From a phage, in the sequence record PV808484.1: a stretch of DNA of 64,000 bases; one strand, given 5' to 3'. This document shows, one piece after another, positions 10,247-63,578 of this stretch. Positions within the stretch are counted from its first letter, which is position 1. Each line of letters opens with the position of its first letter. The notes under the pieces are model-generated. The model searched no databases. It saw only the letters and a program-made list of their open reading frames with translations, and had not been told where the DNA came from. The position numbers and the translations under genes are program-made.

Positions 10247-10266
10247 AATACAGACGGGAGAAAGGT

Positions 10267-10440
10267 ATGAGTTTCTTTGTTACAGTATTTATGGCTATTT
10301 GGATTGTAGTCTCACTCGTTCTTTTCCTGGTGGGTTGTCTGGAAGAGATTAAGAAAGCGGTTATTTGCGGTTTCTTTGGCTTTATTATCTCTCCTGCCTG
10401 GATGTGGTTCTTCATTATGATTGGTTTCCTTAAAAGGTAA
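10267..10440 (+). CDS. small membrane protein (57 aa)
   Basis: hand-translated MSFFVTVFMAIWIVVSLVLFLVGCLEEIKKAVICGFFGFIISPAWMWFFIMIGFLKR; GGGAGAAAGG SD. Confidence 0.4.
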   Translation: MSFFVTVFMAIWIVVSLVLFLVGCLEEIKKAVICGFFGFIISPAWMWFFIMIGFLKR

Positions 10441-10454
10441 GTGAGGAATAAAGA

Positions 10455-10892: not shown

Positions 10893-10903
10893 AAGGGGTT
10901 AAA

Positions 10904-12031
10904 ATGAAATACACGATTTATGGTGATATTGTAAGTGTAAATAAAGATATGGGCGTGGAATCTAACTACCTTCCACCTGGATTCTATACTGTTAGTCGTG
11001 ATCCCCTTGGCAATTATTTTTTAAGCCGTGGTAATCTGACAGGTGTACCGGATGTTCTGTATGGTGAAACAGAAAAACGAGCAAATCACGTTATCCGTAC
11101 ATTCCATCGCCGGAGTGCACAAGGTAAAAATACAGGTTTGCTCCTGACAGGAACTAAGGGCAGTGGTAAAACTATGTTAGCCAAACTCATTAGTCGTGAC
11201 CTTGTAGAAGAAGGTATTCCAACTATTATGGTTACTCAAGCCTACAGCGATGCTAATTTCATTGAACTTATTAGCAAGATCACCGACAAAGCAGTGATTA
11301 TTTTTGACGAGTTTGATAAAGTGTATGAGAAGAAACAAGATCAAGAAGCACTTCTCACTTTGTTAGATGGTACTGGCAGTGGTAATAAACTGTTTATTCT
11401 GACTAAAAACAGTGGTTTTATCTCTGAATTCTTTTTAAATCGTCCTAGTCGTGTGTTTTATAATTTTAATTATGATAAAATCTCACTAGAAACTATGATT
11501 GACTATTTAGATAAAAACCTGGATAACAAAGCACACTTTGATAATTTCCAAAGACTTTGGGATGTAAGTTTAGAGTTGTCCTTTGATGTGATCCAAGGTA
11601 TAGTAGAAGAACTTAATTTCTACCCTGATTTATCCTTTAAAGAATGCATCTCTATGATGGGCGTTTCTTTAGGTGGTGGTAATAAATGGGATATCAGCAG
11701 CGTTGTTATTAATGGAAAACTTCAGAAAGTTAGCTGGGTATCTAGTTGGCATAACTTCACACCTGCAATCTTTTTAGGTGGTTCGTGCACACTAGACGTG
11801 TACTTGTCATCTCCAAGTGATGCAGATTCTAAAGAAGCCCTTGCTAATAGCTCTTACGTGGTTTTTGATGATGAAGGCGATGCTCGAATTCCATTGAATG
11901 CGACAAAAATGAAAGCAGACCTTATCACAGGCGGTAAAATCGTTGTGTTTAGTGATGATCCAGAAGATTCTTTCCGTATTGTTCTGGAACCAACTATCAC
12001 CAATGGTGCAACTTTGGCAAGCGTGTTTTAA
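10904..12031 (+). CDS. AAA-type ATPase
   Basis: Walker A LLTGTKGSGKTMLAKL and Walker B VIIFDEFDK. Confidence 0.7.
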   Translation: MKYTIYGDIVSVNKDMGVESNYLPPGFYTVSRDPLGNYFLSRGNLTGVPDVLYGETEKRANHVIRTFHRRSAQGKNTGLLLTGTKGSGKTMLAKLISRDLVEEGIPTIMVTQAYSDANFIELISKITDKAVIIFDEFDKVYEKKQDQEALLTLLDGTGSGNKLFILTKNSGFISEFFLNRPSRVFYNFNYDKISLETMIDYLDKNLDNKAHFDNFQRLWDVSLELSFDVIQGIVEELNFYPDLSFKECISMMGVSLGGGNKWDISSVVINGKLQKVSWVSSWHNFTPAIFLGGSCTLDVYLSSPSDADSKEALANSSYVVFDDEGDARIPLNATKMKADLITGGKIVVFSDDPEDSFRIVLEPTITNGATLASVF

Positions 12032-15526: not shown

Positions 15527-15889
15527 ATGAGCAAGCAAATCAATACTATCATGTTAAACCTGGTATCTTTCCGCGATGACGTGAAAAATCTTTCGCGTGA
15601 TGCAGTGGATGCACGGATCGAAAGCTATCGCACACAGATCGCAACATTACCGTTAAAACGTGATCAACATGCCGCTAATATGATGCTTGATGCTATGATT
15701 AAAAAGATGATTCAATGTGATCTTACTCTGGCTTATGAATATGCTGGCGATCTTTTTGTAACATATAACAAGCCCGTTCCAGGTATGAGCACCACGGAAG
15801 AATTGCATGCCTTAAATCTGCGACAAGATGCATGGGATAACATGCGCCGTGTTATGGTATGGGTAGAAAGCGGTAAAATTTACGAATAA
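15527..15889 (+). CDS. hypothetical protein
   Basis: 120 aa ORF; AAAGGG SD. Confidence 0.55.
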   Translation: MSKQINTIMLNLVSFRDDVKNLSRDAVDARIESYRTQIATLPLKRDQHAANMMLDAMIKKMIQCDLTLAYEYAGDLFVTYNKPVPGMSTTEELHALNLRQDAWDNMRRVMVWVESGKIYE

Positions 15890-15895
15890 AAACGG

Positions 15896-15950
15896 TTGAC
15901 ATTGCACTAAAACCTGATAAGCTATCTTAAAGCGGGAATAGTTCCCGCTT
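15896..15950 (+). promoter_or_regulatory. promoter plus 5'-UTR hairpin cassette
   Basis: TTGACA then AAGCGGGAATAGTTCCCGCTT. Confidence 0.5.
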
Positions 15951-15967
15951 ACATAGGATAAAACTTT

Positions 15968-16114
15968 ATGAAACAATATGTAATGAGTATTCACACCAAA
16001 AACGGCGCTACTGTTACGACTCCGGCACGGTTTGCACTTGTAAACCGTTGCAAGAGACTAAAACGAGAGCTAAAAAACAACCGTGCAACGGGCTTTAAAC
16101 GCTGGGGAGGATAA
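15968..16114 (+). CDS. small basic protein (48 aa)
   Basis: hand-translated MKQYVMSIHTKNGATVTTPARFALVNRCKRLKRELKNNRATGFKRWGG; cassette upstream. Confidence 0.4.
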   Translation: MKQYVMSIHTKNGATVTTPARFALVNRCKRLKRELKNNRATGFKRWGG

Positions 16115-16116
16115 TC

Positions 16117-16389
16117 TTGTTTTTTCTAAAAGTTTTTGATAATGTGATCGCTTTTGAACATGCTGCAACGTTCAACCTGGCGAGATACGCTATCAGGTTT
16201 AAAGATAATGTTTATCCCCGTGCTGGTGGCGGTTACACTATCTTTAATCATCGTAACGCTCAATTAACGGATATAACGAATCCAGATCCTGGAGTGTATC
16301 GCATAGGTTGGCTACCGTCAAAAGACGCGGCAAGCATGTTTAAGGTGTGTAAACTACTAACAGAAGAGGCGAACGAACATGGGGCGTGA
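16117..16389 (+). CDS. hypothetical protein (probable TTG start)
   Basis: no in-frame ATG near 5' end; GGGGAGG SD 6 nt before TTG. Confidence 0.4.
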   Translation: MFFLKVFDNVIAFEHAATFNLARYAIRFKDNVYPRAGGGYTIFNHRNAQLTDITNPDPGVYRIGWLPSKDAASMFKVCKLLTEEANEHGA

Positions 16390-16933
16390 ATATGTGATCC
16401 AGTCCTGGGTAAAGCATGATGCTGATGATCCGCGCATAATACCAGATGACATGATCGATCACATGGTAGGGTATAGCGGGGAGCAGATAGGAAATCGAGC
16501 GGCAAAGAGCAACGGTCACACAAAAACGCGATCCGTTCGCCCTGGTTGGCTGGCAAATGGTAACGCTGACATTGCAAGCGCCGCAGATCCAAGCGATGAC
16601 GCTAAAAATAATCCCTTATACAGCATTGATCCGGCTTTTAAGGTGTTAGAAGAGTATCCCGCTAAATTAGCCGCACTAGATAAAGCATATGAAGAAAAGC
16701 GCATGGCATGGACGGTATACAACACCGCTAAAATGGTGCTAGATGCAAAATTGATTAAAGCCCAGGAGAAGATCAATAAACTTGTTACCATAGCGCAAGA
16801 GGAAGACCAGGACGACCAGGAGGAAGAGGAAGAAATCATGCCTACCCTGGAAGAGGAAGAGATCCAGCCATACATGCCGACGGAAGAGGAAAAAAGACAA
16901 GCCCTAAAAAATTATGAAAATTGTGTTGTGTAA
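16379..16933 (+). CDS. hypothetical protein with acidic C-terminus
   Basis: 184 aa; ATG overlaps upstream stop; EEDQDDQEEEEE tract. Confidence 0.5.
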   Translation: MGREYVIQSWVKHDADDPRIIPDDMIDHMVGYSGEQIGNRAAKSNGHTKTRSVRPGWLANGNADIASAADPSDDAKNNPLYSIDPAFKVLEEYPAKLAALDKAYEEKRMAWTVYNTAKMVLDAKLIKAQEKINKLVTIAQEEDQDDQEEEEEIMPTLEEEEIQPYMPTEEEKRQALKNYENCVV

Positions 16934-44229: not shown

Positions 44230-44788
44230 TCTCCTCTAAAATAGGCTTAATAAATTCGAAAATTTGTTTTTTACTTTTACCTCGAATATTAAAACAAGGA
44301 ACATTAAACTTTTTAGCCAACATCCAAGCTGTTCTTGTACCACCTAAAGGATCTCCATTTTTATCTGTATTTGCACAAGCTAAAAGAAAACAAGATGGTT
44401 TTGGATTCTCAAGATCTCTTCCAAGAACTTGGTGGATATTTCTTTGATGTAATTTTTTAGCACCTTGAGATAATCTGTCCCAAGCTGGATGCAATTCTTT
44501 TGCATATTGCAAGGTTAGAGCATAGTTTACACTATCTGGTCTGTCAAGAACAATAACCTCTCCCTCTATTTCATTACCTTTAAACGAGAGCCAAGGGATG
44601 TATATTTCTTTCTTTGTATTGTTCCCACTATCATATACCCCGCATTCAAATGCGGAATCTGCACCTTCTGCTTTACCGGATCGCAAAATGAACCATGTAG
44701 ATAACCATTTTGCAACAGATACCATAGTATCCCATTCTTCGTCTGTAATATCTCTGCTACCAACACCTGTGTAGAATAAATCGCTCAT
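44210..44788 (-). CDS. DprA/Smf-like (SLOG-type Rossmann) domain protein
   Basis: start at internal ATG with AAGGAG SD; YTGVGSR, SGKAEGADSAFECG, GGTRTAWMLAKKFNVPCF resemble DprA motifs. Confidence 0.5.
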   Translation of the reverse strand: MSDLFYTGVGSRDITDEEWDTMVSVAKWLSTWFILRSGKAEGADSAFECGVYDSGNNTKKEIYIPWLSFKGNEIEGEVIVLDRPDSVNYALTLQYAKELHPAWDRLSQGAKKLHQRNIHQVLGRDLENPKPSCFLLACANTDKNGDPLGGTRTAWMLAKKFNVPCFNIRGKSKKQIFEFIKPILEENGLVQK

Positions 44789-44798
44789 GGTTTTCTCC

Positions 44799-45119
44799 TT
44801 AACAAGTAATATTGGGAGTAACAATTGGATTAACAATTGGAGTAATAGGGTACGTAAACCAAGGGCTTCCAATTTCCCAAGGATAATAAGGTCTACGAGG
44901 ATCGTATGGAGGAGTTACTTCAGGCTTTTTCCAAATCTCCGCTAATTGTTTCTTCCATTTATCCCTTGCTGTCTCATTATCTTCATCCAACTGTTCATCA
45001 TTATCTTTTATTTCTGGTTTTGGAAATAAAAGCTCTTTGACTAATTCAACATCTTCCGTCTCAATAGTAGTTTCTTTCGTAAGTTCTCCTACTGTTTCTT
45101 TAATTGTGATTTTATACAT
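44799..45119 (-). CDS. hypothetical Pro-rich protein
   Basis: 106 aa; Pro/Thr-rich C-terminus. Confidence 0.5.
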   Translation of the reverse strand: MYKITIKETVGELTKETTIETEDVELVKELLFPKPEIKDNDEQLDEDNETARDKWKKQLAEIWKKPEVTPPYDPRRPYYPWEIGSPWFTYPITPIVNPIVTPNITC

Positions 45120-45862
45120 TAGTCCTCCTCTAAAGTAGAATAAAATTGTAACGTATTTGAATCATCAAAATATGCAAAGGTTAAATTACCATTGAAGCAA
45201 GATCCTGTGTCCATATATACCCTATTACTGCTAATCACAGGTTTAGGAACATAAGAATGCCCGTGAAATACATAATCTACTCCTGAAACCCTAGGAAGAA
45301 GAATTCCTTCAAGTGCGCAATCTATCATATCACGATCCCACATTAAAGATTCTGTGAATCGAGAAACTTGCTCTTTATTCATATTCAAACAAAATGGCAA
45401 AACTTCTGTCACTGGCAAATGTTCCAAAACTGAAGGATACCCACCGTGAATAAAGCCTAGTTTCATATTACGATAATTGACAACAAGTACAACAGGTAAA
45501 TCTTCTAGCATCAAAGCAAGAGCAGTTGCACCCTCTTCTCCACACTCGTCTAGAACTGTATGGCCTCCGTTCTGAAACCAACATTCGTAATATCGTCTAT
45601 CACCTTCTAGCAACCCTTTAATCATCATATCTTCATGGTTCCCACGAATAGCATAACGATTTAGCTTTCTGGTGAATTCAACAACACAACGAAAATTCTG
45701 CTTGCCGCGATCTGTAAGATCTCCTAAAGATACAACAACATCTTGATCTCGGATACCTAAAGTATTAACACCTTTCTGGTACAAATCAAAGCAACCATGT
45801 AAATCACCAATAATAAACAGGTCTTGATCATCTTTTACACTAATTTCTTGATATACTAACAT
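45119..45862 (-). CDS. Ser/Thr protein phosphatase (calcineurin-like)
   Basis: IIGDLHGC, GDLTDRG, RGNHE metallophosphatase motifs; ATG chosen one codon in from TTG. Confidence 0.75.
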   Translation of the reverse strand: MLVYQEISVKDDQDLFIIGDLHGCFDLYQKGVNTLGIRDQDVVVSLGDLTDRGKQNFRCVVEFTRKLNRYAIRGNHEDMMIKGLLEGDRRYYECWFQNGGHTVLDECGEEGATALALMLEDLPVVLVVNYRNMKLGFIHGGYPSVLEHLPVTEVLPFCLNMNKEQVSRFTESLMWDRDMIDCALEGILLPRVSGVDYVFHGHSYVPKPVISSNRVYMDTGSCFNGNLTFAYFDDSNTLQFYSTLEED

Positions 45863-46188
45863 CAACTCTCCTCAAAATCCATAAGTATAAAGATATTAAC
45901 TTTACCTTCTATATTATGTTCTACAACAAGATCTGCAAATTCTTTGTAGGCTTTTTCTTCTATTTGTTCAATGTGAGACGCTACATCTTTGTATATAGCG
46001 TCACCATCTACTTTAACAAGGAGGAATAGAGATCTTACTTCAATCTCTTTATTTTTACGGGGTAGAAAATCGACGGCTTCTTGTATACGCCAGCCGAGAT
46101 ACCCTGGAGTCCTTTGAATATCCTCCAAATGACTTTCTAAGATTTCCCTTCCTTTGTCTATTAAAGCCTGTTCTGTCGTTATTTTCAT
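45862..46188 (-). CDS. hypothetical protein
   Basis: 108 aa ORF. Confidence 0.55.
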   Translation of the reverse strand: MKITTEQALIDKGREILESHLEDIQRTPGYLGWRIQEAVDFLPRKNKEIEVRSLFLLVKVDGDAIYKDVASHIEQIEEKAYKEFADLVVEHNIEGKVNIFILMDFEES

Positions 46189-46198
46189 CCCCTTCTCC

Positions 46199-46771
46199 TT
46201 AATGTGTTAATGAAACTGCGTAGCTAAACACAGGTTCAGATATTACATCGGCTACAGTAATAAAAACGTCTTCGTCTTGAGTTGTTTCTACACGACATAC
46301 AGTTACACCATTCACCACGAATTCAACGCAATGTGGAATATTTTCACAAACGAAGGTAGTGTAAGTAACACCCAAAGCATCATACAAAGATTTAACAGTG
46401 TTTGCAAGTGCCGCAGTTTCTTCTTTTTCTGAGACAATGAATGCTGTAACAACAAGATTGTTTGCATAGTTTAGACTGTCCTCTATAGCCAATGATTTAC
46501 AAGGTAGTAATGCAAAATATTTACCTGGTTTAATCAGACCTGCTTCCCATTGATTCAAAATTGCCTGGGATGGTTTAGTAATATAAAACAGATTTTCACT
46601 TGGGTTATCAATATTACTTCTGGCGATACAACGTGAAGGATTATTAATATCAAACACATGATCAAAATCTACACAAACAGGTAAACTGAAAGGTGTGAAT
46701 TTTTTACCTAATAATCCTATGGCTGATAATATGTTTGCTGTGCTTATCTTCCCGTTAAAAGCTAAACGCAT
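46199..46771 (-). CDS. hypothetical protein
   Basis: 190 aa ORF. Confidence 0.55.
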   Translation of the reverse strand: MRLAFNGKISTANILSAIGLLGKKFTPFSLPVCVDFDHVFDINNPSRCIARSNIDNPSENLFYITKPSQAILNQWEAGLIKPGKYFALLPCKSLAIEDSLNYANNLVVTAFIVSEKEETAALANTVKSLYDALGVTYTTFVCENIPHCVEFVVNGVTVCRVETTQDEDVFITVADVISEPVFSYAVSLTH

Positions 46772-46782
46772 ATTTAACTCCT

Positions 46783-46986
46783 TTAACTAGCAACCGTAAC
46801 TTCCGAACTTTCTTCTTTCGTACTGTCTACGATATGCCTGGTGGCAATATACGAGACTTGCCAGTTACCATCTGGTGTAGTCTCAATAAGTACCCTATCT
46901 ACTTCGAGAAAATGCAAAAATTCAACCATCGCTCGCTTCGATAGGAATTGTTTTTTAACAGTCTCCTCAAAAGATTGAACTGCCAT
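46783..46986 (-). CDS. hypothetical protein
   Basis: 67 aa; GGAGGAAA SD. Confidence 0.5.
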   Translation of the reverse strand: MAVQSFEETVKKQFLSKRAMVEFLHFLEVDRVLIETTPDGNWQVSYIATRHIVDSTKEESSEVTVAS

Positions 46987-46995
46987 GTTTCCTCC

Positions 46996-47658
46996 TTATT
47001 TAATATTCAATTTTGCACAAAGACGTTGTACCGCTTTGGCATCGAACAAACTCCCACGAATAGTTCTCTTTCCTGATTCATTCAGATGCTTTGCAATCGT
47101 CATATATGGCGTTTTACAAGCTCTGTATGCAACTAAAGAATCTTTTAAAGAAAGCGCAAACTCTCTTGAGCGTTTTGCTTCTTCCGTTTTCGTATAATCT
47201 GTTCTTTTGTATTTAGGGTTTGCTGCACCAAGAAGCGTTCCCTTCGCTTTTGCTACCTTAAGGCTCTTCTTAACACGATCAGATATTGCACGAGCCTCTT
47301 CTTCTGCCAGAACTGCTAAAATATTTATTATCATATTTTCAGCGGAGGGCATAGTTGCTATTCGTACATTAATCATCTCTAACAAGGTTGCAACAGAAGC
47401 TGTGTTACGTCCAAGACGGTCAACCTTAGCAACAACAAGTGTAGCACCTGTTTCTTTGCAAAGATTAACAGCTTTTACAAGCTCTCTACGTTGCTTCCAA
47501 TCGCCTTTACCCGAATAAAACTCTGCAAAGCTACCTACAATAGTATAATTTTCTTGTGAATCCAGGAAGCGTTGAATATCTGCTTCCTGTGATTCTATAC
47601 CATACTGGTTGCCTTGTTGTTTCTTCTTAGAAAGTCGATGATATAGTACAAACTTCAT
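46996..47658 (-). CDS. serine recombinase (resolvase/invertase family)
   Basis: N-terminal YHRLSKKKQ with catalytic Ser, VAKVDRLGRN, C-terminal HTH-like segment; GGAGGG SD. Confidence 0.8.
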   Translation of the reverse strand: MKFVLYHRLSKKKQQGNQYGIESQEADIQRFLDSQENYTIVGSFAEFYSGKGDWKQRRELVKAVNLCKETGATLVVAKVDRLGRNTASVATLLEMINVRIATMPSAENMIINILAVLAEEEARAISDRVKKSLKVAKAKGTLLGAANPKYKRTDYTKTEEAKRSREFALSLKDSLVAYRACKTPYMTIAKHLNESGKRTIRGSLFDAKAVQRLCAKLNIK

Positions 47659-47715
47659 AATACCCTCCTGTTCTGTTACAGGAAGTATGCACTACCTTAA
47701 TGTTAAAGTCAACAG

Positions 47716-47919
47716 TTAAGTAGTGGTAATATCATCCTCTTGAATACCAGGGTCAACTTCTGCAAAGATAGCCTCTACAGGAATTTCTTCACCTGCTATT
47801 CTAGAAAGAAGCACTGAACCAATAGCTTTTGCGTGTTCTTCGGATTCCGCATAAACATTAGTTCCTGTGTCTTTTTTCTTAGTTTCGTTAAAATATACCA
47901 GATAGTAATTGTATGCCAT
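47716..47919 (-). CDS. hypothetical protein
   Basis: 67 aa ORF. Confidence 0.45.
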   Translation of the reverse strand: MAYNYYLVYFNETKKKDTGTNVYAESEEHAKAIGSVLLSRIAGEEIPVEAIFAEVDPGIQEDDITTT

Positions 47920-51764: not shown

Positions 51765-52025
51765 TTACTCCGCAATCTGAGCCATGAATTCACGTAGTTC
51801 AGAAAAACCTCCTACGTGGGTTAGCTGTTCACCATCTTCCACAAAAATCTGAGGAAATGTGCGTGGTAGAACACCTGTTTTCTCTAAAACCAGATTCTGA
51901 ATCTGATCTAAAGAATAGTCTTCATCTAAGGTAAGGTATTTAAAATCCTGTTCACGCTGTTCTAGTAGAATCTTAGCGTTAGTGCAGAAAGGACAATTTG
52001 GTTTACCGTAGATAATAAAATTCAT
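51765..52025 (-). CDS. glutaredoxin-like protein
   Basis: CPFC active site; start set to ATG (MNFIIYGKPNCPFC) with AAGGAG SD. Confidence 0.8.
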   Translation of the reverse strand: MNFIIYGKPNCPFCTNAKILLEQREQDFKYLTLDEDYSLDQIQNLVLEKTGVLPRTFPQIFVEDGEQLTHVGGFSELREFMAQIAE

Positions 52026-52027
52026 TT

Positions 52028-52858
52028 TCACTCCTTGTTTAAAAGTATAGTTAAAGTTCTTACAATACCGCTATCAACACTTCGCGGATTTAAAGTAGGA
52101 TCTGTTTTTAAATAAGATGTTGCTGGTCTGACTGCTTTGGAATTATAGGTTGAAGCAGACACAGGATTAACTGTAACAGATAAATCTATAACAAGAAATA
52201 TCTTTCGTGCAAAATCATACCAAGAAATATAATCTGCACCTGCATAGTGTACAATTTTACTATTTACACCATCTTTTACAAGTTTAAAAATTGTTTCTGC
52301 AAGATCAGGTGCATAAGTAGGACATGATAAATGATCACATACTACATTAAATTCTTTTTGACCACCGTTGTAGCGTTCCAACATAGTTTTCAAAAAGTTA
52401 TGTCCAAATTCACTATAAACAGAAGCTGTTCTGATAATAAGTGCTGTAGGACAAACTGTTTGTACTAAAGTTTCACCTAATTGTTTACTGTAACCGTAGG
52501 TGTTCAAGGGGTTTGTTTTACTATCTTCTGTGCCAGCAACATGCCCATCAAAAACATAGTCTGTTGAAATATGTACAAACTGTATCAGTAAATCATTACA
52601 TGCTTTGGCAATGTTTGTTGCACCGTATGCATTAACATTTATACAGGTGTTAACATCTTCTTCAGCTTTATCTACTGCCGTGTAAGCCGCACAATTCACA
52701 ACAACATCAGGCACATGCTGTACAAGACTATTCATAACATCTTTAAAGTTGGTAATGTCTATATCACTTGCTTCAATCAAAACAACATCTTCTGGTGCAA
52801 CTTTTGCCAAAGATTGTCCTAATTGACCTTTTGATCCAAAGACTAAAAATTTTGTCAA
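52028..52858 (-). CDS. rmlD: dTDP-4-dehydrorhamnose reductase (probable TTG start)
   Basis: N-terminal FGSKGQLGQ Rossmann motif; typical RmlD length; AAGGAG SD. Confidence 0.8.
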   Translation of the reverse strand: MTKFLVFGSKGQLGQSLAKVAPEDVVLIEASDIDITNFKDVMNSLVQHVPDVVVNCAAYTAVDKAEEDVNTCINVNAYGATNIAKACNDLLIQFVHISTDYVFDGHVAGTEDSKTNPLNTYGYSKQLGETLVQTVCPTALIIRTASVYSEFGHNFLKTMLERYNGGQKEFNVVCDHLSCPTYAPDLAETIFKLVKDGVNSKIVHYAGADYISWYDFARKIFLVIDLSVTVNPVSASTYNSKAVRPATSYLKTDPTLNPRSVDSGIVRTLTILLNKE

Positions 52859-53409
52859 AGTATGATCTCCTTTAGTGTTTTTGCTTCCTGATCTTTTTGT
52901 GACAAGATAGGTTTAAAATTAATATCATTAAAGATTAAATCAAAACCCCAATCTATATTGATATCTGGATCATTCCACGCAAGACTACATTCTGAAGTCG
53001 GATCGTAATATTCTGTACATTTATATTCAAAATCAGCAATATCGCTAATCACAACAAAGCCATGAGCGAAACCAGGAGGAATCCAAAATTGTGTTTTATT
53101 CTTTTCAGATAAGAGAACACCTACCCATTCTCCAAATGTTGGACTACCAACCCTAATATCTACAGCAACATCATAAACTTCACCACGAACACAGCGTACT
53201 AACTTCCCTTGTGGGTTTTTCTTTTGAAAATGAAGCCCACGTAGAACTCCTCGGATAGAACGTGAATGGTTATCTTGGACAAAGTTTTGTTTACCTATGT
53301 ATTGATCATATAAAGCCTGATTAAAACTTTCTAAGAAAAAGCCACGTTCATCTCCGTAAACGTCAGGTTGAATGATCAACAAATCTTCGATTTTTGTTGC
53401 TTGAATCAT
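52855..53409 (-). CDS. rmlC: dTDP-4-dehydrorhamnose 3,5-epimerase
   Basis: GDERGFFLESF, RGLHFQ and cupin-type motifs. Confidence 0.85.
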   Translation of the reverse strand: MIQATKIEDLLIIQPDVYGDERGFFLESFNQALYDQYIGKQNFVQDNHSRSIRGVLRGLHFQKKNPQGKLVRCVRGEVYDVAVDIRVGSPTFGEWVGVLLSEKNKTQFWIPPGFAHGFVVISDIADFEYKCTEYYDPTSECSLAWNDPDINIDWGFDLIFNDINFKPILSQKDQEAKTLKEIIL

Positions 53410-53421
53410 TTAATTCCCCTT

Positions 53422-54291
53422 TTATTTTAATTTAAGTAAATACTTACCGTAGTCTGTTTTACTTAAAACCTCTCCAGAACTTTTTACAGAGTCTAAAGTA
53501 ATCCATTCATTTTTAAAAGCAATCTCTTCCAGGCATGCAACCTTCATACCTTGTTGCTTCTCTATTGCATGAACAAATTGAGATGCTTCCATAAGACTTT
53601 CATGTGTTCCTGTATCCAGCCAAGTGAAACCTCTTCCTAGCTTACAGACACGTAAAGCCTTTTCTTTCCAGTACATCTCATTTATATCTGTGATCTCTAA
53701 CTCCCCTCTAGCAGAAGGCTTAACGCTTTTAGCTTTCTGTATAACAGAATTATCGTAAAAGTACAAGCCTGTAATTGCATAGTTGCTTTTTGGTGCTTTT
53801 GGTTTTTCTTCAATACTTACTACTGTACCTTCAGAATCAAACTCAACAACACCAAATCTTTCAGGATCATTTACGTGATACCCAAAAATATTAGCTCCAC
53901 CATTCTTTTCAATATGTTCTCTAGCAGAATCTAAAATGCTACCAAAACTCTGACCAAAGAATAAATTATCACCTAGAACAAGTGCTACAGAATCTTCACC
54001 AATAAAGCTCTCACCAATAATAAACGCTTCTGCTAAACCTTTTGGGCTGTCCTGTATTGCATACTGTAGGGAAACACCAAAAGAAGAACCATCACCTAGA
54101 AGATTTACAAAATTAATTTGATCTTCTGGTGTTGTAATTATTAGTATTTCCCTAATTCCAGAAAGCATTAGGACAGAGAGTGGATAATAAATCATAGGTT
54201 TATCGTAAATTGGTAATAGTTGTTTACTAACCCCTTTAGTAACTGGGTAAAGTCTTGTCCCACTACCACCCGCTAAGATAATACCTTTCAT
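53422..54291 (-). CDS. rmlA: glucose-1-phosphate thymidylyltransferase
   Basis: [18 protein letters not shown]...[16 protein letters not shown]. Confidence 0.9.
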
Positions 54292-54299
54292 ACTCCTCC

Positions 54300-55289
54300 T
54301 TAAACTTTATTTTCCCACCACTCTTTGTTATCTACATACCAATCAATGGTTGAATAAAGTTTTTCTTCAAATGTGCCTTTAGCTTTCCACCCTAATTCCT
54401 TTTCAATCTTATAAGGATTCACTTCATATCTTAAATCATGCCCAGGTCTATCTGTAACCATCTCAATGAGGCTACAAGCATCTGTTTCAGATGGATATAC
54501 CGCATCCATATAATCACAAATCATATAGATTACATCAATATTAGTTCTAGGGTTTCTGCTCCCAATATTATATGTCTCTCCAGATTTGCCTTTAGTTACT
54601 ACCAGGTGTAATGCTTCTGCGTGATCATCAACGTATAGCCAATCTCTTACTTGAAGACCATCGCCATAAACAGGGATTGGTTTATTCATTAAGATATTTG
54701 TTATCGTCTTAGGTATTAGTTTTTCTGGATGATGATATGCTCCAAAATTATTTGAACAATTTGTTATAACTGTCGGAATACCATAAGTACGATGCCACGC
54801 TCTTACCAAATGATCGCTTGCAGCTTTAGATGCAGCATATGGACTACTTGGTTTATAAGGATTCTGTTCTGTAAACGGATAATCCCCTTCTTCCATATCA
54901 CCATACACTTCATCTGTTGAAATATGATGGAACATTTTAAGATTTGATTTATCTCCCATTAAACGAACAGCTTCTAGAAGATTAAATGTTCCAACAATAT
55001 TTGAATTTATAAAAACACTCGGTGATGCTATTGAATTATCTACGTGACTCTCTGCTGCAAGATGCATTATATAATCTGGATTAACATCTGCCACAATCTT
55101 AGCAGTTAACTGCGCATTTGTCAAGTCAACACGACAAAACTTTACATTAGGTGTTTCTGATAAATTTCTAGGGTCTGAAGCGTAACCCCATTTATCTATA
55201 ACGTAAATATCATTCTTAGTATTTTTAGCTAGGAAACGAACTACCGCACTTCCAATAAAGCCTAAACCACCTGTTACTAAGTATTTCAT
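54300..55289 (-). CDS. rmlB: dTDP-glucose 4,6-dehydratase
   Basis: TGGLGFIGS Rossmann motif, YAASKAASD catalytic YxxxK. Confidence 0.9.
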
Positions 55290-56138: not shown

Positions 56139-56349
56139 CTTTTTCTCCTTTGATAATTTCAAACTTGGCTACACCATTAACTATAATGTGACCGCAAGAC
56201 ATAACCCCTAGCCAATGATCACCATTCTTTTTTAAACGTTTACCGTAAACATCACAGAAACCATTCTGTAATTCGGAAGCCTCATAAGAGGCTCCCTTTT
56301 CGAAAACGTCTTTGAAGTCAGAAATTAATCCAACACAAAGTAGTTTCAT
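56131..56349 (-). CDS. hypothetical protein
   Basis: 72 aa; ATG overlaps nrdB stop. Confidence 0.5.
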   Translation of the reverse strand: MKLLCVGLISDFKDVFEKGASYEASELQNGFCDVYGKRLKKNGDHWLGVMSCGHIIVNGVAKFEIIKGEKDD

Positions 56350-57434
56350 TAAAAGTCTAACTCCTCGTCATCACTTACATCTTTATTTGCTGAATTCAGT
56401 TTGTAAGCTGTAATTTGGATCTCCTGTGCTGCTGCTTGAATTTGATCTGGATTTAACCAAACATCCATCCAAGGCAGTGGACTTTTCTTCGGTGCACGGA
56501 ATTTGTGTTTCATTTTCAGTCTGCGATAGATAGGCGCGGCATTGAAGTAAACCCAAAGTTTGAACAACTCTGCGTTACCACCAACGATAACCCTTCCTTC
56601 ACTAAACAGATAGTCACACCAATCTTCCTCTTGTCCAACTACCGTATCAAGAATTTCTGTCAGAACGTCGATATTGTCTTCGTATACTTTTCTCCAGACA
56701 GGATCTTTCAGCAGTGCATCAATAATAGCATAATCCATTTTAACGTGCAATAGTTCATCCAACATAATTTTTTGAATGAGTTTAGCTGCACCTACAAACA
56801 GTTGCTGCTCTGCTAAGGCAAATGTTGCAGCAAAAGATGATATGAATTGAATGCCTTCCAGACCGATAAGTGCAATCATTCCTTTCAGAATCAGTAGACG
56901 AAGGTTATCATCCTTCTCAATCAGACCTAGAGCATATTTATGTCCTGCCTCTGCCAGATCACTCATTATCTCTTCAACTATACCCATCCTCTGGAAGATT
57001 CTTTCGTTCTCCATAATCTGATCGATAACTTCATTTGGATTAGGGATACACTGACGAATAATTTCAGAATATGTCAAAGCGTGTAAAACTTCCATTTCTG
57101 ATTGCTTCATCATCATTGCACATGCTTCGTTGTTGCTTAAAAATGGTGCAAACAAAGTGATGATTGATTTAGCAAGTGAATCATTTTCCCATTGGAAGGA
57201 TAGGTTTTTGATCATAACATCATAGTTGCTTTTAGAACAAGCTACGAAATCTTTTCGTGTCTGATCTAAGTTTACTTCGTTTTCATCCCAATCTTGCTGT
57301 TTTTGTAGTTTGTACAGACGATGCATTTCTGGGTATGTTACATTAATAGAATCAAAAATACCTAACTGTTCTCCCAAAAATACAGGGTAGAAACCTTCTT
57401 TGTAAGTGTCGTTGTATAAGTTAATTGCTGCCAT
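56349..57434 (-). CDS. nrdB: ribonucleotide reductase class Ia small subunit
   Basis: 361 aa; diiron/tyrosyl-radical subunit pattern; adjacent to nrdA. Confidence 0.9.
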   Translation of the reverse strand: MAAINLYNDTYKEGFYPVFLGEQLGIFDSINVTYPEMHRLYKLQKQQDWDENEVNLDQTRKDFVACSKSNYDVMIKNLSFQWENDSLAKSIITLFAPFLSNNEACAMMMKQSEMEVLHALTYSEIIRQCIPNPNEVIDQIMENERIFQRMGIVEEIMSDLAEAGHKYALGLIEKDDNLRLLILKGMIALIGLEGIQFISSFAATFALAEQQLFVGAAKLIQKIMLDELLHVKMDYAIIDALLKDPVWRKVYEDNIDVLTEILDTVVGQEEDWCDYLFSEGRVIVGGNAELFKLWVYFNAAPIYRRLKMKHKFRAPKKSPLPWMDVWLNPDQIQAAAQEIQITAYKLNSANKDVSDDEELDF

Positions 57435-57796: not shown

Positions 57797-60058
57797 TTAC
57801 ATCTTACAAGCCTCACAACCGGATTCTTCATCCTCTTGAGCGAGTGAGGTTGCCGATTTTGTTCTGCTATTTAGATAGTACAAAGATTTACCACCAAGTT
57901 TTGCAAACTGAAGAATATATTGCATTTCTGATTTAATGGATAAACGACCACCTTCCATCTTAGAATAGTCAATCCACTTATCACATGATGCACCTTGATC
58001 TAAGAATTTAGTCAATAGTCCATATGCTTCAGCCATATCTTTATCTGGCGTATCCCAAGCCGATTGGTAAATATCTTTTAGTTTATCGTAATCTGGCACA
58101 ATAAACAGAACATTACCTTTTTGGCTTTGTTTATAAACTATAGTATCACGTACAGGATACACAGAGTTAGTCGTATTACTTACAAGACTACTGGACTCAT
58201 TCGGAGCAATAGCTGCTAATACACTATTTCGGATACCGCCTTGTGCAATGATATCTTGTCGTAAACCTTCCCAATCCATTTTAAGTTTAAAATTGCCAAT
58301 ATCATCTACAGCTTTAGCGTAGGTGTCAATAGGCAACCATCCTTCAGGCCATTTGGTTTTATGCATCCATTCTGCATTACCTTTCTCTTTTGCCAAACGA
58401 AGAGAAGCTCTTGCTAACCAATAATAATGTCTTTCTGCTAATTCGTGAATTAGTTTTTTGCCGTAAGGATCTGAATAAGTAACAAAATTACTTGCCAGAT
58501 AATGTGCAAGGTTTGTAATACCTACACCGATAGACCTACGTGCTTTAGCAGTGATTTCGTTATGTTTAAACGGATACTGCATTGTTTCAATCACATTATC
58601 AATAGTTAGAACGGTATAATATGCAACATCTTCATATTCTTCTGGTGTAACACGACCAGCTACAATAGAAGACAAGAAGCATAATGCCAATTCTTGATCT
58701 TCTGTGTTCTCACCTGTGAAAAGATCCGTCATACTGTGAAATGCTTTCGTAGGTAAGAAAATTTCTTGGCACAAGTTTGACTGATAAATAACATCCTTAA
58801 ACGGAGTATGCTTATTAGCATTATCCGCAAAGAACATATAAATACGTCCTGTCTCTGCTCTTTGTGTAATAATTTCTGCCAGAAGATCTCGTGCTTTTAC
58901 AAACTTCTTCTTAATTCGTTTGCGACTAACTTTTTCATATACTTCTTCAAACTCTTCCTCGCTTTTATAAAGCGCCTCATAGAGTTCTGGTGCTTCGTCA
59001 TAACTGACTAGCATCCAATCTTTGCCTTTTGCTGCACGGCGCAGGAAAGCATTGTTTACTACAATAGAGTAATCAAGTTTATCTACTCGTTTTTCACTAA
59101 CAGTAGTTGGGTTTTTCAAACGTACCAGATCTTCAAAATCAGGTTCTAGTATTGTAAACGTTACTGTTGCACTTCCACCACGACTTGCTTGTTTTGATGC
59201 TCCAACACTTGTTTCCATCCATTTCAGATATGGTAAAAGACCACCGTGAACGATACGGTTGTTCTTAACACCTTGTCCTGTAGCACGGGTTTGGAGGTTA
59301 ACACCAATACCTGCATTATTCAATGTATATTCATGAGCAAGATAGTTAGCAATTGCTAAAGATTCTGCTGTATCGTCTGCTCTAAACAGACAACAAGAAG
59401 CACTACCTTTAATCTTAGTACGCAAAGTTGTTAAATAAGGTGATGGTAAATTAATCTTAAGATCACTTACGTAGGTATATAGACGTTTAATGTCTTCTAC
59501 TCTGCGATCTTTTGGTTGGATTTCCATTACCTTCATTGCTACACCAATGAATAAAAATTGTGGTGATTCAAAAACCACATCATTGATCGCATCTTTCACA
59601 AGATACTTATCAACCATCTGGCGCAGTACGGAATAACCATAAGTTAGGTTTTTATCATGATTGATAATTTTACCAATCTCAATAATTTCTTCTTCTGTAT
59701 AATCCATTTTCCCCCAATAGCCTTTACTTACAGACATATTGTAGAAATCCAGGAGGGAGGGGATATTGTGATATCCCCCATGAGCCTGTTTATAGATCAT
59801 ACCAAGAAGTAACCGACCTGCCATATCACTATATGCCTGATCTTTCTTATCAATACATGCTGCTATCATAGCTTTATGTAAATCACGAGTAGGCACACCG
59901 TCGTAACAACGTTTAACAGCTTCGAGTTCAATTTCAGACCAATTTAATTTACCAGCAGCAAACTCTGACCATTTACGAAGTTTTTCTGGATTAAATTCTT
60001 CTTTCTTGCCGTTTGTTTTTGTTACATAACGGATAGATTTGCTTAGATACTGAGTCAC
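57797..60058 (-). CDS. nrdA: ribonucleotide reductase class Ia large subunit (probable GTG start)
   Basis: 753 aa; catalytic Cys-containing blocks and C-terminal CEACKM tail; AGGAGAGG SD. Confidence 0.9.
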   Translation of the reverse strand: MTQYLSKSIRYVTKTNGKKEEFNPEKLRKWSEFAAGKLNWSEIELEAVKRCYDGVPTRDLHKAMIAACIDKKDQAYSDMAGRLLLGMIYKQAHGGYHNIPSLLDFYNMSVSKGYWGKMDYTEEEIIEIGKIINHDKNLTYGYSVLRQMVDKYLVKDAINDVVFESPQFLFIGVAMKVMEIQPKDRRVEDIKRLYTYVSDLKINLPSPYLTTLRTKIKGSASCCLFRADDTAESLAIANYLAHEYTLNNAGIGVNLQTRATGQGVKNNRIVHGGLLPYLKWMETSVGASKQASRGGSATVTFTILEPDFEDLVRLKNPTTVSEKRVDKLDYSIVVNNAFLRRAAKGKDWMLVSYDEAPELYEALYKSEEEFEEVYEKVSRKRIKKKFVKARDLLAEIITQRAETGRIYMFFADNANKHTPFKDVIYQSNLCQEIFLPTKAFHSMTDLFTGENTEDQELALCFLSSIVAGRVTPEEYEDVAYYTVLTIDNVIETMQYPFKHNEITAKARRSIGVGITNLAHYLASNFVTYSDPYGKKLIHELAERHYYWLARASLRLAKEKGNAEWMHKTKWPEGWLPIDTYAKAVDDIGNFKLKMDWEGLRQDIIAQGGIRNSVLAAIAPNESSSLVSNTTNSVYPVRDTIVYKQSQKGNVLFIVPDYDKLKDIYQSAWDTPDKDMAEAYGLLTKFLDQGASCDKWIDYSKMEGGRLSIKSEMQYILQFAKLGGKSLYYLNSRTKSATSLAQEDEESGCEACKM

Positions 60059-60069
60059 TTCCTCTCCTA

Positions 60070-60318
60070 TTAATTGTGCATGTTTAGAACATCTACATCA
60101 TAACCGCCACGCATCTCATTATATAAGCCATTTGCGTATAGAAAACCTTCAAAATGATCTATACCTTCAAAACCTTTTGCCTTTGCTTTGCGGTCTGCTT
60201 CTTGTCTTTTTGGGGATAATCTTTTAGATGTATCAAGGATAACTGTTACATTGCAACCTAATGTTTCATCAAAATAGACTTCAATTTCACAGCCTTCATA
60301 TTTATTACTTTCTGTCAT
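60070..60318 (-). CDS. hypothetical protein
   Basis: start at internal ATG (MTESNKY) with GAGAGG SD. Confidence 0.5.
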   Translation of the reverse strand: MTESNKYEGCEIEVYFDETLGCNVTVILDTSKRLSPKRQEADRKAKAKGFEGIDHFEGFLYANGLYNEMRGGYDVDVLNMHN

Positions 60319-60330
60319 TTGGCCTCTCAA

Positions 60331-60741
60331 TTAGAATTCAGAATCATCATCTCGTGATGGATCATGTTCATTTCCGAAGTCTTCCATTTTGATATGAGAG
60401 CTACCCCAACCTGTAAAATCTTCTTCTCCAAAGTGCAAAATATCTACACCTTGATAGATTCGCTTATATTTATAGTCTTGTCGAACTGGGAAAGTATACA
60501 ATGTAGTATTTGCAAACACCACACGTCGATTGTTGTTACTACGAATATTAACACCACGTTCTACTGTATAATGTCCATCGGTAGACATACCAAGCATTAC
60601 TAATGCTGCTCGCAATGTAGTGTTATGATATTCGTGAGGAATTTTTCCTCCGTGCTTTTTAGCCATTTCTTTCCAGATCGGTGTAGCCTTAATGGTAGAC
60701 ATACTTACGGTCGCCCAAATGGTTGTATTAATTAGTGACAT
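60331..60741 (-). CDS. hypothetical protein
   Basis: 136 aa; GAAGGAG SD preceded by AGGAGAGC-TAT-GCTCTCCT hairpin. Confidence 0.55.
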   Translation of the reverse strand: MSLINTTIWATVSMSTIKATPIWKEMAKKHGGKIPHEYHNTTLRAALVMLGMSTDGHYTVERGVNIRSNNNRRVVFANTTLYTFPVRQDYKYKRIYQGVDILHFGEEDFTGWGSSHIKMEDFGNEHDPSRDDDSEF

Positions 60742-60838
60742 AAATTCTCCTTCTCTCTTTTAAGGAGAGCATAGCTCTCCTAACGTTAGCCTATACTACA
60801 CGAATCTCAATTAAAAGTCAACTATAATTTTAAGTTGA

Positions 60839-61810
60839 TCACCATTTTGTATGGTTAGTCAAAAGTTGACGATGTTGAATCCAACCACAGAAGTTTCCAC
60901 TCCACAAACGATGTTTACGATCCATATGTGTAATACCTTCTTCCCAAGAGGAAGGGAACGGAGGAATATTAATACCACCTTTCTGTTGTTTTAATCCTGA
61001 CAAATCCATTTCTTTCATTGGCGTTGCCTGGTGTTCAAACGGAGATGCATGTACCTTTTGTCCAGACAGCAAACGAGAATAGATATCCAATGCTTTATCT
61101 TTAGTATCATTCAACTTACGATAACTTACCTGAGCGCAACAAGAAGCTGAAATAGCTTTTGCTTCATCTTCTGTCAACATTTTCTCGTTGGAGAAGGTTT
61201 CACCCAAGAAATAACGGATCATACCAGTTTCTGGATCTCGATCACGATTAACGTAAGGTGTATGCCACTCCCCTGGGAAAAGAAGATATGGTTCAGAAGA
61301 TTCATACAGTTTTTTAATTTCTTTAGCAAGAGCCTCAATAGTAGGATCTGCATCAGCATCTACGCGCAACCACAAGAAGTTTTCTAACTCTGTAGTGGTT
61401 ACTACAGTCTTCATACGCTGGAATGGTTCTAGTAGTCGGTTTGCAACCTGTTTATGATAACCAGCAAGAGCAAACTCTTCTGCAAAACGTGCAGCACTTA
61501 GCGCAGCCAAGTCCCACCATTCTTTTGCAGTGTAACCTGCATCAATCAGGGCATCGTGATCTGTGCCTTTATCTTGCATACCTGGTTGGTTAGCACCAAA
61601 ACGATAAGGACGTGCTGGAGATTGCCGTACCATTTCAATTAGAGTTTTAACAGGGATAGCTCGACTTGATGCGGCATTACGAGAAAACAAACGATGCGTC
61701 ATCAATTCAGAGTGAATGATTCGAGGATATTCAAGTTCAAAGGTAACAATATCCTTACCTTCAGATGTTTGAGAGTGTGCAATAATTTTTGCTGAAATAG
61801 AATCTGTCAT
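60839..61810 (-). CDS. thyX: ThyX-like (flavin-dependent thymidylate synthase family) protein
   Basis: THRLFSRNAASSR aligns with ThyX RHR-x7-S block but first Arg is Thr; ENFLWLRVDADA matches downstream ThyX block. Confidence 0.7.
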   Translation of the reverse strand: MTDSISAKIIAHSQTSEGKDIVTFELEYPRIIHSELMTHRLFSRNAASSRAIPVKTLIEMVRQSPARPYRFGANQPGMQDKGTDHDALIDAGYTAKEWWDLAALSAARFAEEFALAGYHKQVANRLLEPFQRMKTVVTTTELENFLWLRVDADADPTIEALAKEIKKLYESSEPYLLFPGEWHTPYVNRDRDPETGMIRYFLGETFSNEKMLTEDEAKAISASCCAQVSYRKLNDTKDKALDIYSRLLSGQKVHASPFEHQATPMKEMDLSGLKQQKGGINIPPFPSSWEEGITHMDRKHRLWSGNFCGWIQHRQLLTNHTKW

Positions 61811-61819
61811 TATTTCTCC

Positions 61820-62410
61820 TTAAGGTAGTAAAATACTTTCAATTTCTTCCCACTGATTATCTAAACCAGTGATAATTACATTAGGAAGTTTCTTTAACTC
61901 TTCCAAGTATGGATCTTCATAAATAGTGTTGAAATATATTTTCAACGTTTCATCTGGAAACAGGACAAGATTTTCAGCCCTATCATCAATAGTTACGTCG
62001 CAAGGTAATAAGTATTTTTCTTTTGTTGCGAAAAAACCATTACCAGATGTTCTACTAAAATCCACTTTATCTAAAGACCGTGTTACGTGTCTATATTTAG
62101 AACTAAGGTGTCCACCCTTAGTGTGGCTTGCTATAGATATATTAGCTCCATTTGCAATTATACGATGAACAACATCTGTACTATTAGGTACTACGCCCAT
62201 AGTATCATATAGATGTTGGTTATCCCAAAAAGAGTAAGGATCTACACCAAATTGCTTTTTAAAATCAGGGAAATATTTCGTAATATCATAATGCACAGTT
62301 TTATGTGTCTTATCAAATTTGATATTAGATCTACTTACCGCATTTAACCAATTTAACCATTCTATATCCGCAGGAGCTATTACTAAATCCCAATCACATA
62401 CTAGACGCAT
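61820..62410 (-). CDS. HAD-family 5'(3')-deoxyribonucleotidase-like protein
   Basis: start at internal ATG with AGGAG SD; HAD motif I CDWDLV (DxDxV) near N-terminus; later DD motif. Confidence 0.5.
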   Translation of the reverse strand: MRLVCDWDLVIAPADIEWLNWLNAVSRSNIKFDKTHKTVHYDITKYFPDFKKQFGVDPYSFWDNQHLYDTMGVVPNSTDVVHRIIANGANISIASHTKGGHLSSKYRHVTRSLDKVDFSRTSGNGFFATKEKYLLPCDVTIDDRAENLVLFPDETLKIYFNTIYEDPYLEELKKLPNVIITGLDNQWEEIESILLP

Positions 62411-62957
62411 TATTTCTCCTGTTATAACATTTTCTACACATTGTTTCGTAAATGTCTTCTCCCCCAATAACAATCTGTTCTTTAGAGTCGATAAGTCTAG
62501 CATTGAAAATAGCTTTTCTTCCACATTTACAAATGCTTTTCAATTCTGTAATTGAATCTGCTATAGCTAATAACCGTTCAGAACCTTCAAACAATTCTGT
62601 AGCAAAATCTGTTTTAAGTCCATAGCAGAATACAGGAATATCGTAATTATCTACCACATCTCCAAGAATGTCAACCATATCTTTAGTTAGGAATTGTGAT
62701 TCATCTACAAATACTGCATCTACTGGATTTTCTTTAAGCTGTGTATAAATTTCCAGCATATCTTCTTTTGTTTTAACTGGTTTTGCTTCCTCTTTAATAC
62801 CTATCCTAGAAGCAATAGCACAACCAGATCTGGTATCTAAAGCTGAAGTTAAAAGAAGAACTTTCATATTTCTTTCTTTATAGTTCCAAGCTGTTTGTAG
62901 AAGATGTGTGCTTTTACCACTGTTCATCGGACTATATCGGAAATAAAGTTTAGCCAT
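62394..62957 (-). CDS. tdk: thymidine kinase
   Basis: P-loop PMNSGKSTHLL, VDESQF, C-terminal CxCG...CRKCY zinc knuckle. Confidence 0.9.
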   Translation of the reverse strand: MAKLYFRYSPMNSGKSTHLLQTAWNYKERNMKVLLLTSALDTRSGCAIASRIGIKEEAKPVKTKEDMLEIYTQLKENPVDAVFVDESQFLTKDMVDILGDVVDNYDIPVFCYGLKTDFATELFEGSERLLAIADSITELKSICKCGRKAIFNARLIDSKEQIVIGGEDIYETMCRKCYNRRNNASSM

Positions 62958-63002
62958 ATTTTCTCCTCTAACGCTCCCGTTTGTGGGAGCGATAATACTT
63001 TA

Positions 63003-63578
63003 TTATTTCTCTTCGTCAAGAAGAATTTTTACTATTTGTTTTCTTCGCTTACTTACTGTACTTTCTGGTGAAATTCCGCGCTTCGTTAGCCAATTTTTAT
63101 CCTTTTTAGACTGGCATAAAGCTATCGCTTCCTTCTCCGCTTTTGCTTCCCTGAATGTCATATCGTGCTTGTCAGCATAAGCCAGGATAGCGTTACACTG
63201 CTTACAAACTACACGCAGGTCGTCTTCTGTTACATACAATAGGCGTAAAACAAAACTTGGGATATCTTCATAACAGGTTAATGTACCTGCTGCATTGATA
63301 TGGTCTACTTGAAAGTCTTTCATACCTCCTGTGTGTCCACACAATTCACACTTACAATTCCAAACCTGTTTCGGTTTGCCTGTTTTCTTATCTAAAACTA
63401 CATTGCCATCTTTGTCCAACCTATCGGCTTTAAATCGTACAGATTGGATCTTTTTTATCTTATTTGGGTGTCTCACCCATGCTTTCCTTAAGCAACCCCT
63501 TAAATATGTATAAAAGGCTGCTTGAGTTTTCCAAGGTGTTCCATCTCCCCAAATAACTTTAGGTTCTTTATTTTCCAA
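63003..63578 (-). CDS. HNH endonuclease (probable TTG start)
   Basis: CKCELCG...DHINAAG...CKQCNAIL; no in-frame ATG near 5' end; AAGGTG SD. Confidence 0.6.
   Translation of the reverse strand: MENKEPKVIWGDGTPWKTQAAFYTYLRGCLRKAWVRHPNKIKKIQSVRFKADRLDKDGNVVLDKKTGKPKQVWNCKCELCGHTGGMKDFQVDHINAAGTLTCYEDIPSFVLRLLYVTEDDLRVVCKQCNAILAYADKHDMTFREAKAEKEAIALCQSKKDKNWLTKRGISPESTVSKRRKQIVKILLDEEK

Follow-up and report, generated by a model that had tools for sequence, protein, structure and literature searches.

Flavin-dependent thymidylate synthases (ThyX, also FDTS) are homotetramers with active sites shared between subunits, which contain bound FAD and convert dUMP to dTMP in a reaction dependent on NAD(P)H and CH2-THF. 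In the structures of the T. maritima enzyme, whose residue numbering is used here for canonical ThyX, R74 and R165 presumably make FAD/dUMP phosphate contacts. In the same enzyme R78 directs its guanidinium towards N1/C2=O of the flavin in its reduced form and has a stabilising effect on FADH-. H53, which comes from another monomer, stacks on the flavin or folate and is kept in place by N85 and by Y91, a residue that has been proposed as the general acid and whose mutants react 100- to 1000-fold more slowly; S30 and S88 form hydrogen bonds to the flavin C4=O, and R174 activates dUMP (PMC11940539, PMC8316439). The ThyX signature R-H-R-x7-S goes back to Myllykallio 2002, as cited in PMC2826268, and one evolutionary study selected ThyX sequences by the RHRx7S motif.

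Canonical ThyX (T. maritima TM0449, M. tuberculosis ThyX, PBCV-1 A674R; PF02511, TIGR02170) is among the closest described systems to the phage protein and its clade examined here. PolB of Streptomyces cacaoi (PDB 4P5A/4P5B) is a ThyX-family C5-methylase of UMP/dUMP in polyoxin biosynthesis; it belongs to an actinomycete antibiotic gene cluster, whereas the phage clade occurs in DNA-precursor modules, and the identity between the two is only about 15-20%. The phage enzymes of the ThyA family (T4 Td and the dUMP/dCMP hydroxymethylases of hypermodifying phages) occupy the position that the clade would also hold, from dUMP to a C5-substituted pyrimidine nucleotide, but their fold and mechanism are unrelated, with a cysteine nucleophile and DHF as product, and they are usually paired with DHFR.

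The gene and its assignment to the ThyX family

The window analysed here is a stretch of 64,000 nucleotides (sequence record PV808484.1) from a phi92-like E. coli myovirus of the genus Justusliebigvirus, with an AT-rich genome of about 37% GC; bases 60000-63000 show 99.6% identity to phage JohannJBalmer (BASEL Bas62). The gene of interest starts with ATG and encodes a protein of 323 aa (Table 1). Three unannotated records deposited as Campylobacter phages A150, A145 and C3 with C. jejuni as host (MG065639, MG065645 and MG065656) are 98.8% identical to phi92-like E. coli phages over the 3-kb region, which suggests that their hosts were mislabelled or the lysates contaminated. Past the stop codon of the gene there is a gap of 97 nt, in which a match to a sigma-70-like promoter (TTGACT-17-TAGTAT) comes first; a perfect hairpin of 8 bp (AGGAGAGC-TAT-GCTCTCCT) comes next, immediately ahead of the ribosome-binding site of the following gene. 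This may be a promoter of the middle or late class, or an element with a regulatory or terminator function.

Table 1. Features of the ThyX-like gene and of its surroundings, in window positions
Feature	Position	Strand	Remark
HNH/endonuclease VII-like gene (phrog_1985)	63003..63578	-	Two genes upstream of the ThyX-like gene
Thymidine kinase	62394..62957	-	Pfam TK 1.2e-54
NT5C-like HAD phosphatase candidate (phrog_420)	61820..62410	-	Start from JohannJBalmer annotation
Ribosome-binding site AAGGAG, 6 nt before ATG	61816..61821	-	Read from sequence
ThyX-like CDS, 323 aa	60839..61810	-	100% identical to JohannJBalmer bas62_0219 'thymidylate synthase'
Collinear ThyX core, residues 19-176 = T. maritima ThyX 59-201 (beta2, alpha3, motif loop, alpha4-alpha7)	61283..61756	-	
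Altered ThyX motif T38-H39-R40-x7-S48-x-R50-A51 (canonical R78-H79-R80-x7-S88-x-R90-Y91)	61661..61699	-	Alignments, column counts
ENFLWLRVDADA block, residues 143-154; N144 = N169, R149 = R174, both invariant	61349..61384	-	
Relocated module, residues 214-266 (helix, helix, V-H254-A-S-P-F-E259-H260, short strand) = T. maritima 20-65	61013..61171	-	HMMER, hhalign, AF2 secondary structure
Clade-specific C-terminal tail, residues 267-323, with conserved S304-G-N306-F-x-G-W-I-Q312-x-R314	60839..61012	-	
Promoter match and hairpin	60763..60821	-	
Class I ribonucleotide reductase large subunit NrdA	57797..60058	-	
Ribonucleotide reductase small subunit NrdB	56349..57434	-	
Glutaredoxin and rmlD, rmlC, rmlA, rmlB	51765..55289	-	dTDP-rhamnose pathway, consumes dTTP

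The protein matches Pfam Thy1 (PF02511) with 37 bits against a gathering cutoff of 24.8 (E 3.9e-9), the match being confined to residues 22-170 and profile positions 59-186 of 191, and PHROG 85 'thymidylate synthase' with 8.5e-109; the NCBIfam thyX equivalog TIGR02170 gives 35.8 bits, under its cutoff of 87.9. The predicted structure has the three-dimensional fold of ThyX. A phmmer search of the single protein against PDB sequences returned no match, so that the phage lineage has no solved structure there; a profile of 102 diverse members (38-53% identity to the query) was needed for a PDB match, and reaches the ThyX chains of T. maritima, M. tuberculosis, PBCV-1 and H. pylori.

Residue equivalences were taken from a profile-profile comparison (hhalign) against a 120-sequence canonical alignment; the T. 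maritima sequence used is 100% identical to the database entry, hence the numbering is sound. Around the motif the pairs are S34=R74, E35=Q75, T38=R78, H39=H79, R40=R80, N45=N85, A46=E86, S48=S88, R50=R90 and A51=Y91, further downstream R125=R147, T138=N163, T140=R165, N144=N169 and R149=R174, and in a module situated near the C-terminus S229=S30 and H254=H53.

The signature thus reads T-H-R-x7-S in this protein. Since the profile and hhalign equivalences fix T38 to R78, the original prediction of a ThyX-like protein with threonine in place of the first signature arginine was correct, and three independent alignment methods agree on its register, T-H-R-x7-S-x-R. The motif peptide E-L-M-T38-H39-R40-L-F-S-R-N-A-A-S48-S-R50 is encoded by GAA TTG ATG ACG CAT CGT TTG TTT TCT CGT AAT GCC GCA TCA AGT CGA. 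The downstream ThyX-type block that had also been pointed out is intact (ENFLWLRVDADA, with R149 in the place of R174), and the protein is as long as stated, about 100 residues over canonical ThyX. A misread register or a chance match is excluded by these alignments, and such errors, a sequencing error included, are scarcely conceivable as the origin of the THR motif when 99-100% identical copies of the protein occur in at least 51 phage records and 97 of 102 diverse homologues carry threonine at this position.

A phage clade with its own signature residues

T38 had been regarded as a peculiarity of one protein, a view that did not hold: threonine is both the consensus and the signature residue across a very large clade of phage proteins (position 38 is T in 97, R in 2, K in 2 and A in 1 of the 102 members). 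The protein was matched by tblastn in 1,035 phage records, among them relatives of N4 (gp30), rV5, phAPEC8, ICP1, PAK_P1, pf16 and of Caulobacter and Acinetobacter phages, and a search of 1.84 billion cluster representatives (50% identity) gave 4,968 matches at E <= 1e-3, of which 1,492 reach E <= 1e-30. Scanning 185,579 species genomes with a single peptide pattern yielded only 12 loci, all on MAG contigs and most with phage-type neighbours; as far as tested, with a sub-alignment plus that one pattern in the species-genome search, the clade is restricted to phages. In the rV5-like Escherichia phage vB_EcoM-ECP26 the gene was deposited as two proteins (BFVD A0A4Y5TVX3, 245 aa, and A0A4Y5TVY4, 97 aa), the split falling near the start of the module that contains the H53 equivalent. 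Because the ThyX-like gene of the related phage FFH2 is intact (327 aa), the split is probably a frameshift or an annotation artefact, and the possibility that it is general to rV5-like phages was discarded.

Relative to canonical ThyX, R78 is replaced by Thr and Y91 by Ala clade-wide (A51 in 102/102), R74 by Ser or Ala, R165 by Thr and N163 by Thr or Ser, and R80 is kept as R40 in 80/102. The loss of Y91 is a larger departure from ThyX than T38 and was absent from the original prediction. The equivalents of H79 (H39, 102/102), S88 (S48, 101/102), R90 (R50, 102/102), N85 (N45), R147 (R125), N169, R174 (R149), S30 (S229) and H53 (H254) are invariant or nearly so. Clade-specific invariant residues are G77-M78, H119-K120-Q121, H183, R231 and R314, and the 'GxNQxGMQ' loop, the 'HKQ' and 'WHxPY' motifs and the 'SGNFxGWIQxR' C-terminal tail are absent from canonical ThyX. 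The rare members with R38 or K38 retain all other clade signatures and are no nearer canonical ThyX; the two with a true RHR, P0222 and P0260, were considered as intermediates and rejected, as they are not more canonical-like.

The long members of the clade (520-680 aa) bear inteins, recognized by Pfam Intein_splicing together with HNH or LAGLIDADG domains, with Cys as first residue and a C-terminal junction of HN or GN followed by C or S; the gene in the window is intein-free. The insertion sites, five or more, are located in query numbering at H33|S34, R40|L41, F42|S43, S48|S49, about R149|V150 and H254|A255, all within the motifs equivalent to RHR-x7-S-x-R, R174 and H53 (the intein-bearing homologues are P0133, P0138, P0141, P0142, P0162, P0202, P0207, P0229, P0234, P0240, P0247, P0248, P0251, P0257 and P0261). 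Inteins typically sit in essential active-site segments, and their position inside these three motifs in relatives is an independent sign that the motifs constitute the functional core.

This pattern bears on whether the protein may be a catalytically inactive ThyX relic that was retained in the phage dNTP-synthesis machinery for binding nucleotides or flavin, or for a regulatory or scaffolding role. Such a role would accord with the lack of two residues important for canonical catalysis and with the replacement of R74 and R165, the presumed phosphate contacts. It appears nonetheless quite improbable, given that some 40 positions, the remaining catalytic set among them, show complete conservation or conservation of 90% or more at 38-53% identity, that inteins target exactly the conserved motifs, that the rare R38/K38 members keep all else, and that the clade has been maintained across many phage families, in more than 1,000 genomes and in 4,968 representative clusters.

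Order of the core and the H53 module

In canonical ThyX the alpha1-alpha2-H53 segment lies between beta1 and beta2, and the elements follow one another as beta1, alpha1, alpha2, H53 turn, beta2, alpha3, RHR and the rest; in the phage clade the corresponding module is found after alpha7. When the clade profile was compared with T. maritima ThyX by HMMER, three pieces were aligned out of order: clade 23-52 with native 61-90, clade 129-173 with native 155-199, and clade 212-256 with native 19-61, the last comprising alpha1, alpha2 and G-H53-E-T-P-F-E-H59 against V-H254-A-S-P-F-E-H260. By hhalign, the core (clade 19-176) corresponds to T. maritima 59-201 with a probability of 91.6% (E 8e-7) and the module (clade 219-266) to T. 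maritima 20-65 with a probability of 82% (E 1.1e-5). Of 244 clade proteins, 201 had positions of about 17-64 of the canonical HMM assigned to their C-terminal region and none had them among its first 60 residues, with a consistent register and individually weak E-values (median 0.6, best 3.8e-6). The Pfam scan of ten isolated C-terminal fragments (residue 186 to the end) gave no Thy1 match, which places the support for the relocated module at the profile level.

The AF2 model of the phage protein (pLDDT 94.5, pTM 0.92) was compared in its order of secondary structure with a canonical model from the same pipeline. The canonical model shows, in native numbering, beta1 at 9-17, alpha1 at 20-29, alpha2 at 38-50, the turn at 55-59, beta2 at 61-69 and alpha3 at 70-77, followed by the rest. 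In the phage model a strand (6-14) is followed directly by beta2 (20-29) and alpha3 (30-37) and the chain continues to alpha7 (156-171); three short strands (188-212) then lead to alpha1 (214-227), alpha2 (237-247), the turn (256-260), a strand (262-264) and the tail. Altogether, profiles and models indicate that the fold is very likely rearranged, with the alpha1-alpha2-HxxPFEH module after the core, a second major departure that the original prediction did not include. Part of the extra length of the protein would stem from the relocation of this module past the core, and as H53 acts in trans in the canonical enzyme, moving it could change how the active site is assembled from the subunits.

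The C-terminal tail has no detectable counterpart in the canonical ThyX profile (E 0.32). The idea that its 'GWIQHR' is a degenerate second copy of the 'RQWFRHR' helix, arisen by tandem duplication, was rejected upon internal comparison of the N- and C-terminal parts (hhalign E 0.3).

Genomic context and likely activity

The thymidine kinase, the NT5C-like gene and the rml genes that had been noted in the vicinity are all in one leftward array, composed of an HNH-like gene, thymidine kinase, the NT5C-like HAD protein, the ThyX-like gene, two small ORFs, NrdA, a small ORF, NrdB, five small ORFs, RmlB, RmlA, RmlC, RmlD and glutaredoxin. Neither annotation nor tblastn detected ThyA, canonical ThyX, DHFR, dUTPase or dCMP deaminase in the complete JohannJBalmer genome and the window; a faint DHFR-like tblastn match at window positions 16525-16674 was dismissed as a spurious hit to a serine-rich antisense ORF. 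The gene is the sole member of the Thy1 family in the genome, and the proposal of a paralogue, taken as a second copy within its own genome, does not apply.

Several neighbours deserve separate mention. Homologues of the HNH/endonuclease VII-like gene (phrog_1985) lie no more than 10 kb from the ThyX-like gene in 23/80 diverse viral loci, unusually persistent for a free-standing homing-type endonuclease. The NT5C-like protein carries a D-x-D HAD-type motif (CDWDLV), its NT5C match is sub-threshold (22.9 bits vs 24.8) and PHROG 420 has no assigned function; the mechanical ORF (61820..62524, minus strand, 234 aa, GTG start) would overlap the end of the thymidine kinase gene by 131 nt, and the deposited start is 62410 (196 aa). 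A deoxynucleotidase next to thymidine kinase and thymidylate synthase would be a metabolically odd pairing. The full rmlABCD set is accompanied by glycosyltransferase and 'disaccharide synthase' genes (JohannJBalmer 44550..47726), yet this phage type is highly restriction-sensitive; candidate targets of the dTDP-sugar pathway are DNA, the virion or the host surface.

The neighbourhood was surveyed within ±10 kb in 80 diverse IMG/VR viral loci, where the RNR large subunit was found in 24, NrdB in 22, a thioredoxin-like protein and DNA polymerase A in 16 each, a dATP/dGTP diphosphohydrolase domain in 12, dCMP deaminase in 9 and the NT5C-like protein in 8; MazG-type pyrophosphohydrolases recur in several. 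DHFR and canonical ThyX were absent from all 80 loci and a ThyA-family gene was present in one, so that ThyA and the clade are largely mutually exclusive in the loci examined. A dNTP-supply neighbourhood with neither ThyA nor DHFR is the genomic pattern of a thymidylate synthase. In N4-like roseophages, dCMP deaminase is encoded two genes upstream from the homologue (PMC2784036). No obligatory partner gene was found beside the ThyX-like gene, the best candidate being a 119-aa ORF of no known function located directly downstream in 14/79 loci, and PADLOC defence models gave no match.

In the single locus with both genes (L029), the ThyA-family gene (15678-16307, plus strand; Pfam Thymidylat_synt 2e-59) and the ThyX-like gene (9995-10954) form the only such pair within 10 kb among the 80 loci; the ThyA-family ORF spans profile positions 87-266 only; it may encode a hydroxymethylase or a second, redundant thymidylate synthase, or represent a gene that has been split. 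The dATP/dGTP diphosphohydrolase N-terminal domain (PF18909) lies near the ThyX-like gene at L062:3511-3972 and in 11 other viral loci, and no protein of this type was seen near the ThyX-like gene of the window; this hints at wider dNTP-pool editing in PF18909/MazG-bearing phages.

Between the two alternatives raised by the original prediction, a divergent thymidylate synthase and a paralogue with a different pyrimidine-modifying activity, the first is favoured because most ThyX active-site residues are kept, the gene belongs to a dNTP-supply module, the phage is devoid of any other thymidylate synthase or DHFR, and phi92-like phages, Bas62 included, are 'exceptionally susceptible' to RM systems (PMC8594841). 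The protein, from a phage-only ThyX clade of variant structure, probably works as a flavin-dependent dTMP synthase. Against this stand the clade-wide absence of R78 and Y91, both with catalytic roles in T. maritima ThyX, and a score far under the TIGR02170 equivalog cutoff; besides, being the only thymidylate synthase gene in the phage is no proof of need, as the host already has ThyA.

That the enzyme derives from ThyX but has a changed chemistry or substrate is rather unlikely. Such an enzyme could hydrate the exocyclic methylene where ThyX reduces it and so produce 5-hydroxymethyl-dUMP, or it could be a methylase of UMP or dCMP, in the way that PolB methylates UMP. However, the uracil-recognising and uracil-activating arginines are invariant; the setting, compared as gene context only, consists of phage replication and dNTP genes in 80/80 loci, with dCMP deaminase in DNA-precursor modules and no antibiotic clusters of the PolB type; and no ThyA is encoded in 79/80 loci or in the whole phage genome. 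The thymidine hypermodification pathways known so far begin with hydroxymethylases of the ThyA family, not with ThyX (PMC8989533). The RM susceptibility of phi92-like phages argues against a bulky thymidine modification as well, though small changes such as hmU need not block restriction.

In the favoured dTMP synthase reading, reduced flavin would take the methylene from CH2-THF and hand it to C5 of dUMP, as in canonical ThyX. The substrate would be activated by R149 and held by S48, R50 and R125, and H254, S229 and N45 would line the flavin/folate site. The roles of the lost R78 and Y91 would presumably be taken over by residues among H119-K120-Q121, H183, R231, R314 and G77-M78, a choice that is a guess. 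The products would be dTMP and THF, and since THF would be formed, DHFR would not be needed; the dTMP would supply the AT-rich phage genome and the phage dTDP-rhamnose pathway.

Neither the change of the motif nor the missing Y91 nor the new order of the chain was found described in the literature searched, nor was a biochemical or genetic assay of any member of the clade, and the naming of its genes as thyX or thymidylate synthase, carried by more than 1,000 phage genomes, is based purely on homology. Yet the protein lacks the signature motif, falls below the curated equivalog threshold, is devoid of two mechanistically important residues and has its chain order rearranged. The likely role is thus an ordinary one, and it is the structure and mechanism that are unexpected. 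It is conceivable, with a low probability, that a phage-only ThyX lineage (in model phages such as N4, ICP1, rV5, phi92 and PAK_P1 relatives), having moved the H53 module and dispensed with R78 and Y91, carries out the ThyX reaction via different residues, possibly in a different oligomer, or else makes an overlooked C5-modified pyrimidine nucleotide.

Either outcome can be tested cheaply, as members of the clade are found in phages of E. coli, Vibrio and Pseudomonas that are easy to handle. If the protein is not a thymidylate synthase, a widely propagated annotation would be wrong and several model phages may hold an unrecognised nucleotide chemistry. If it is active, the clade would amount to a natural test of which ThyX residues are really needed and of how the three-subunit active site can be rebuilt, which is of relevance because ThyX is an antibacterial drug target; a ThyX reaction performed with other residues would be a direct test of the current proposals of Y91 as general acid and of R78 as hydroquinone stabiliser.
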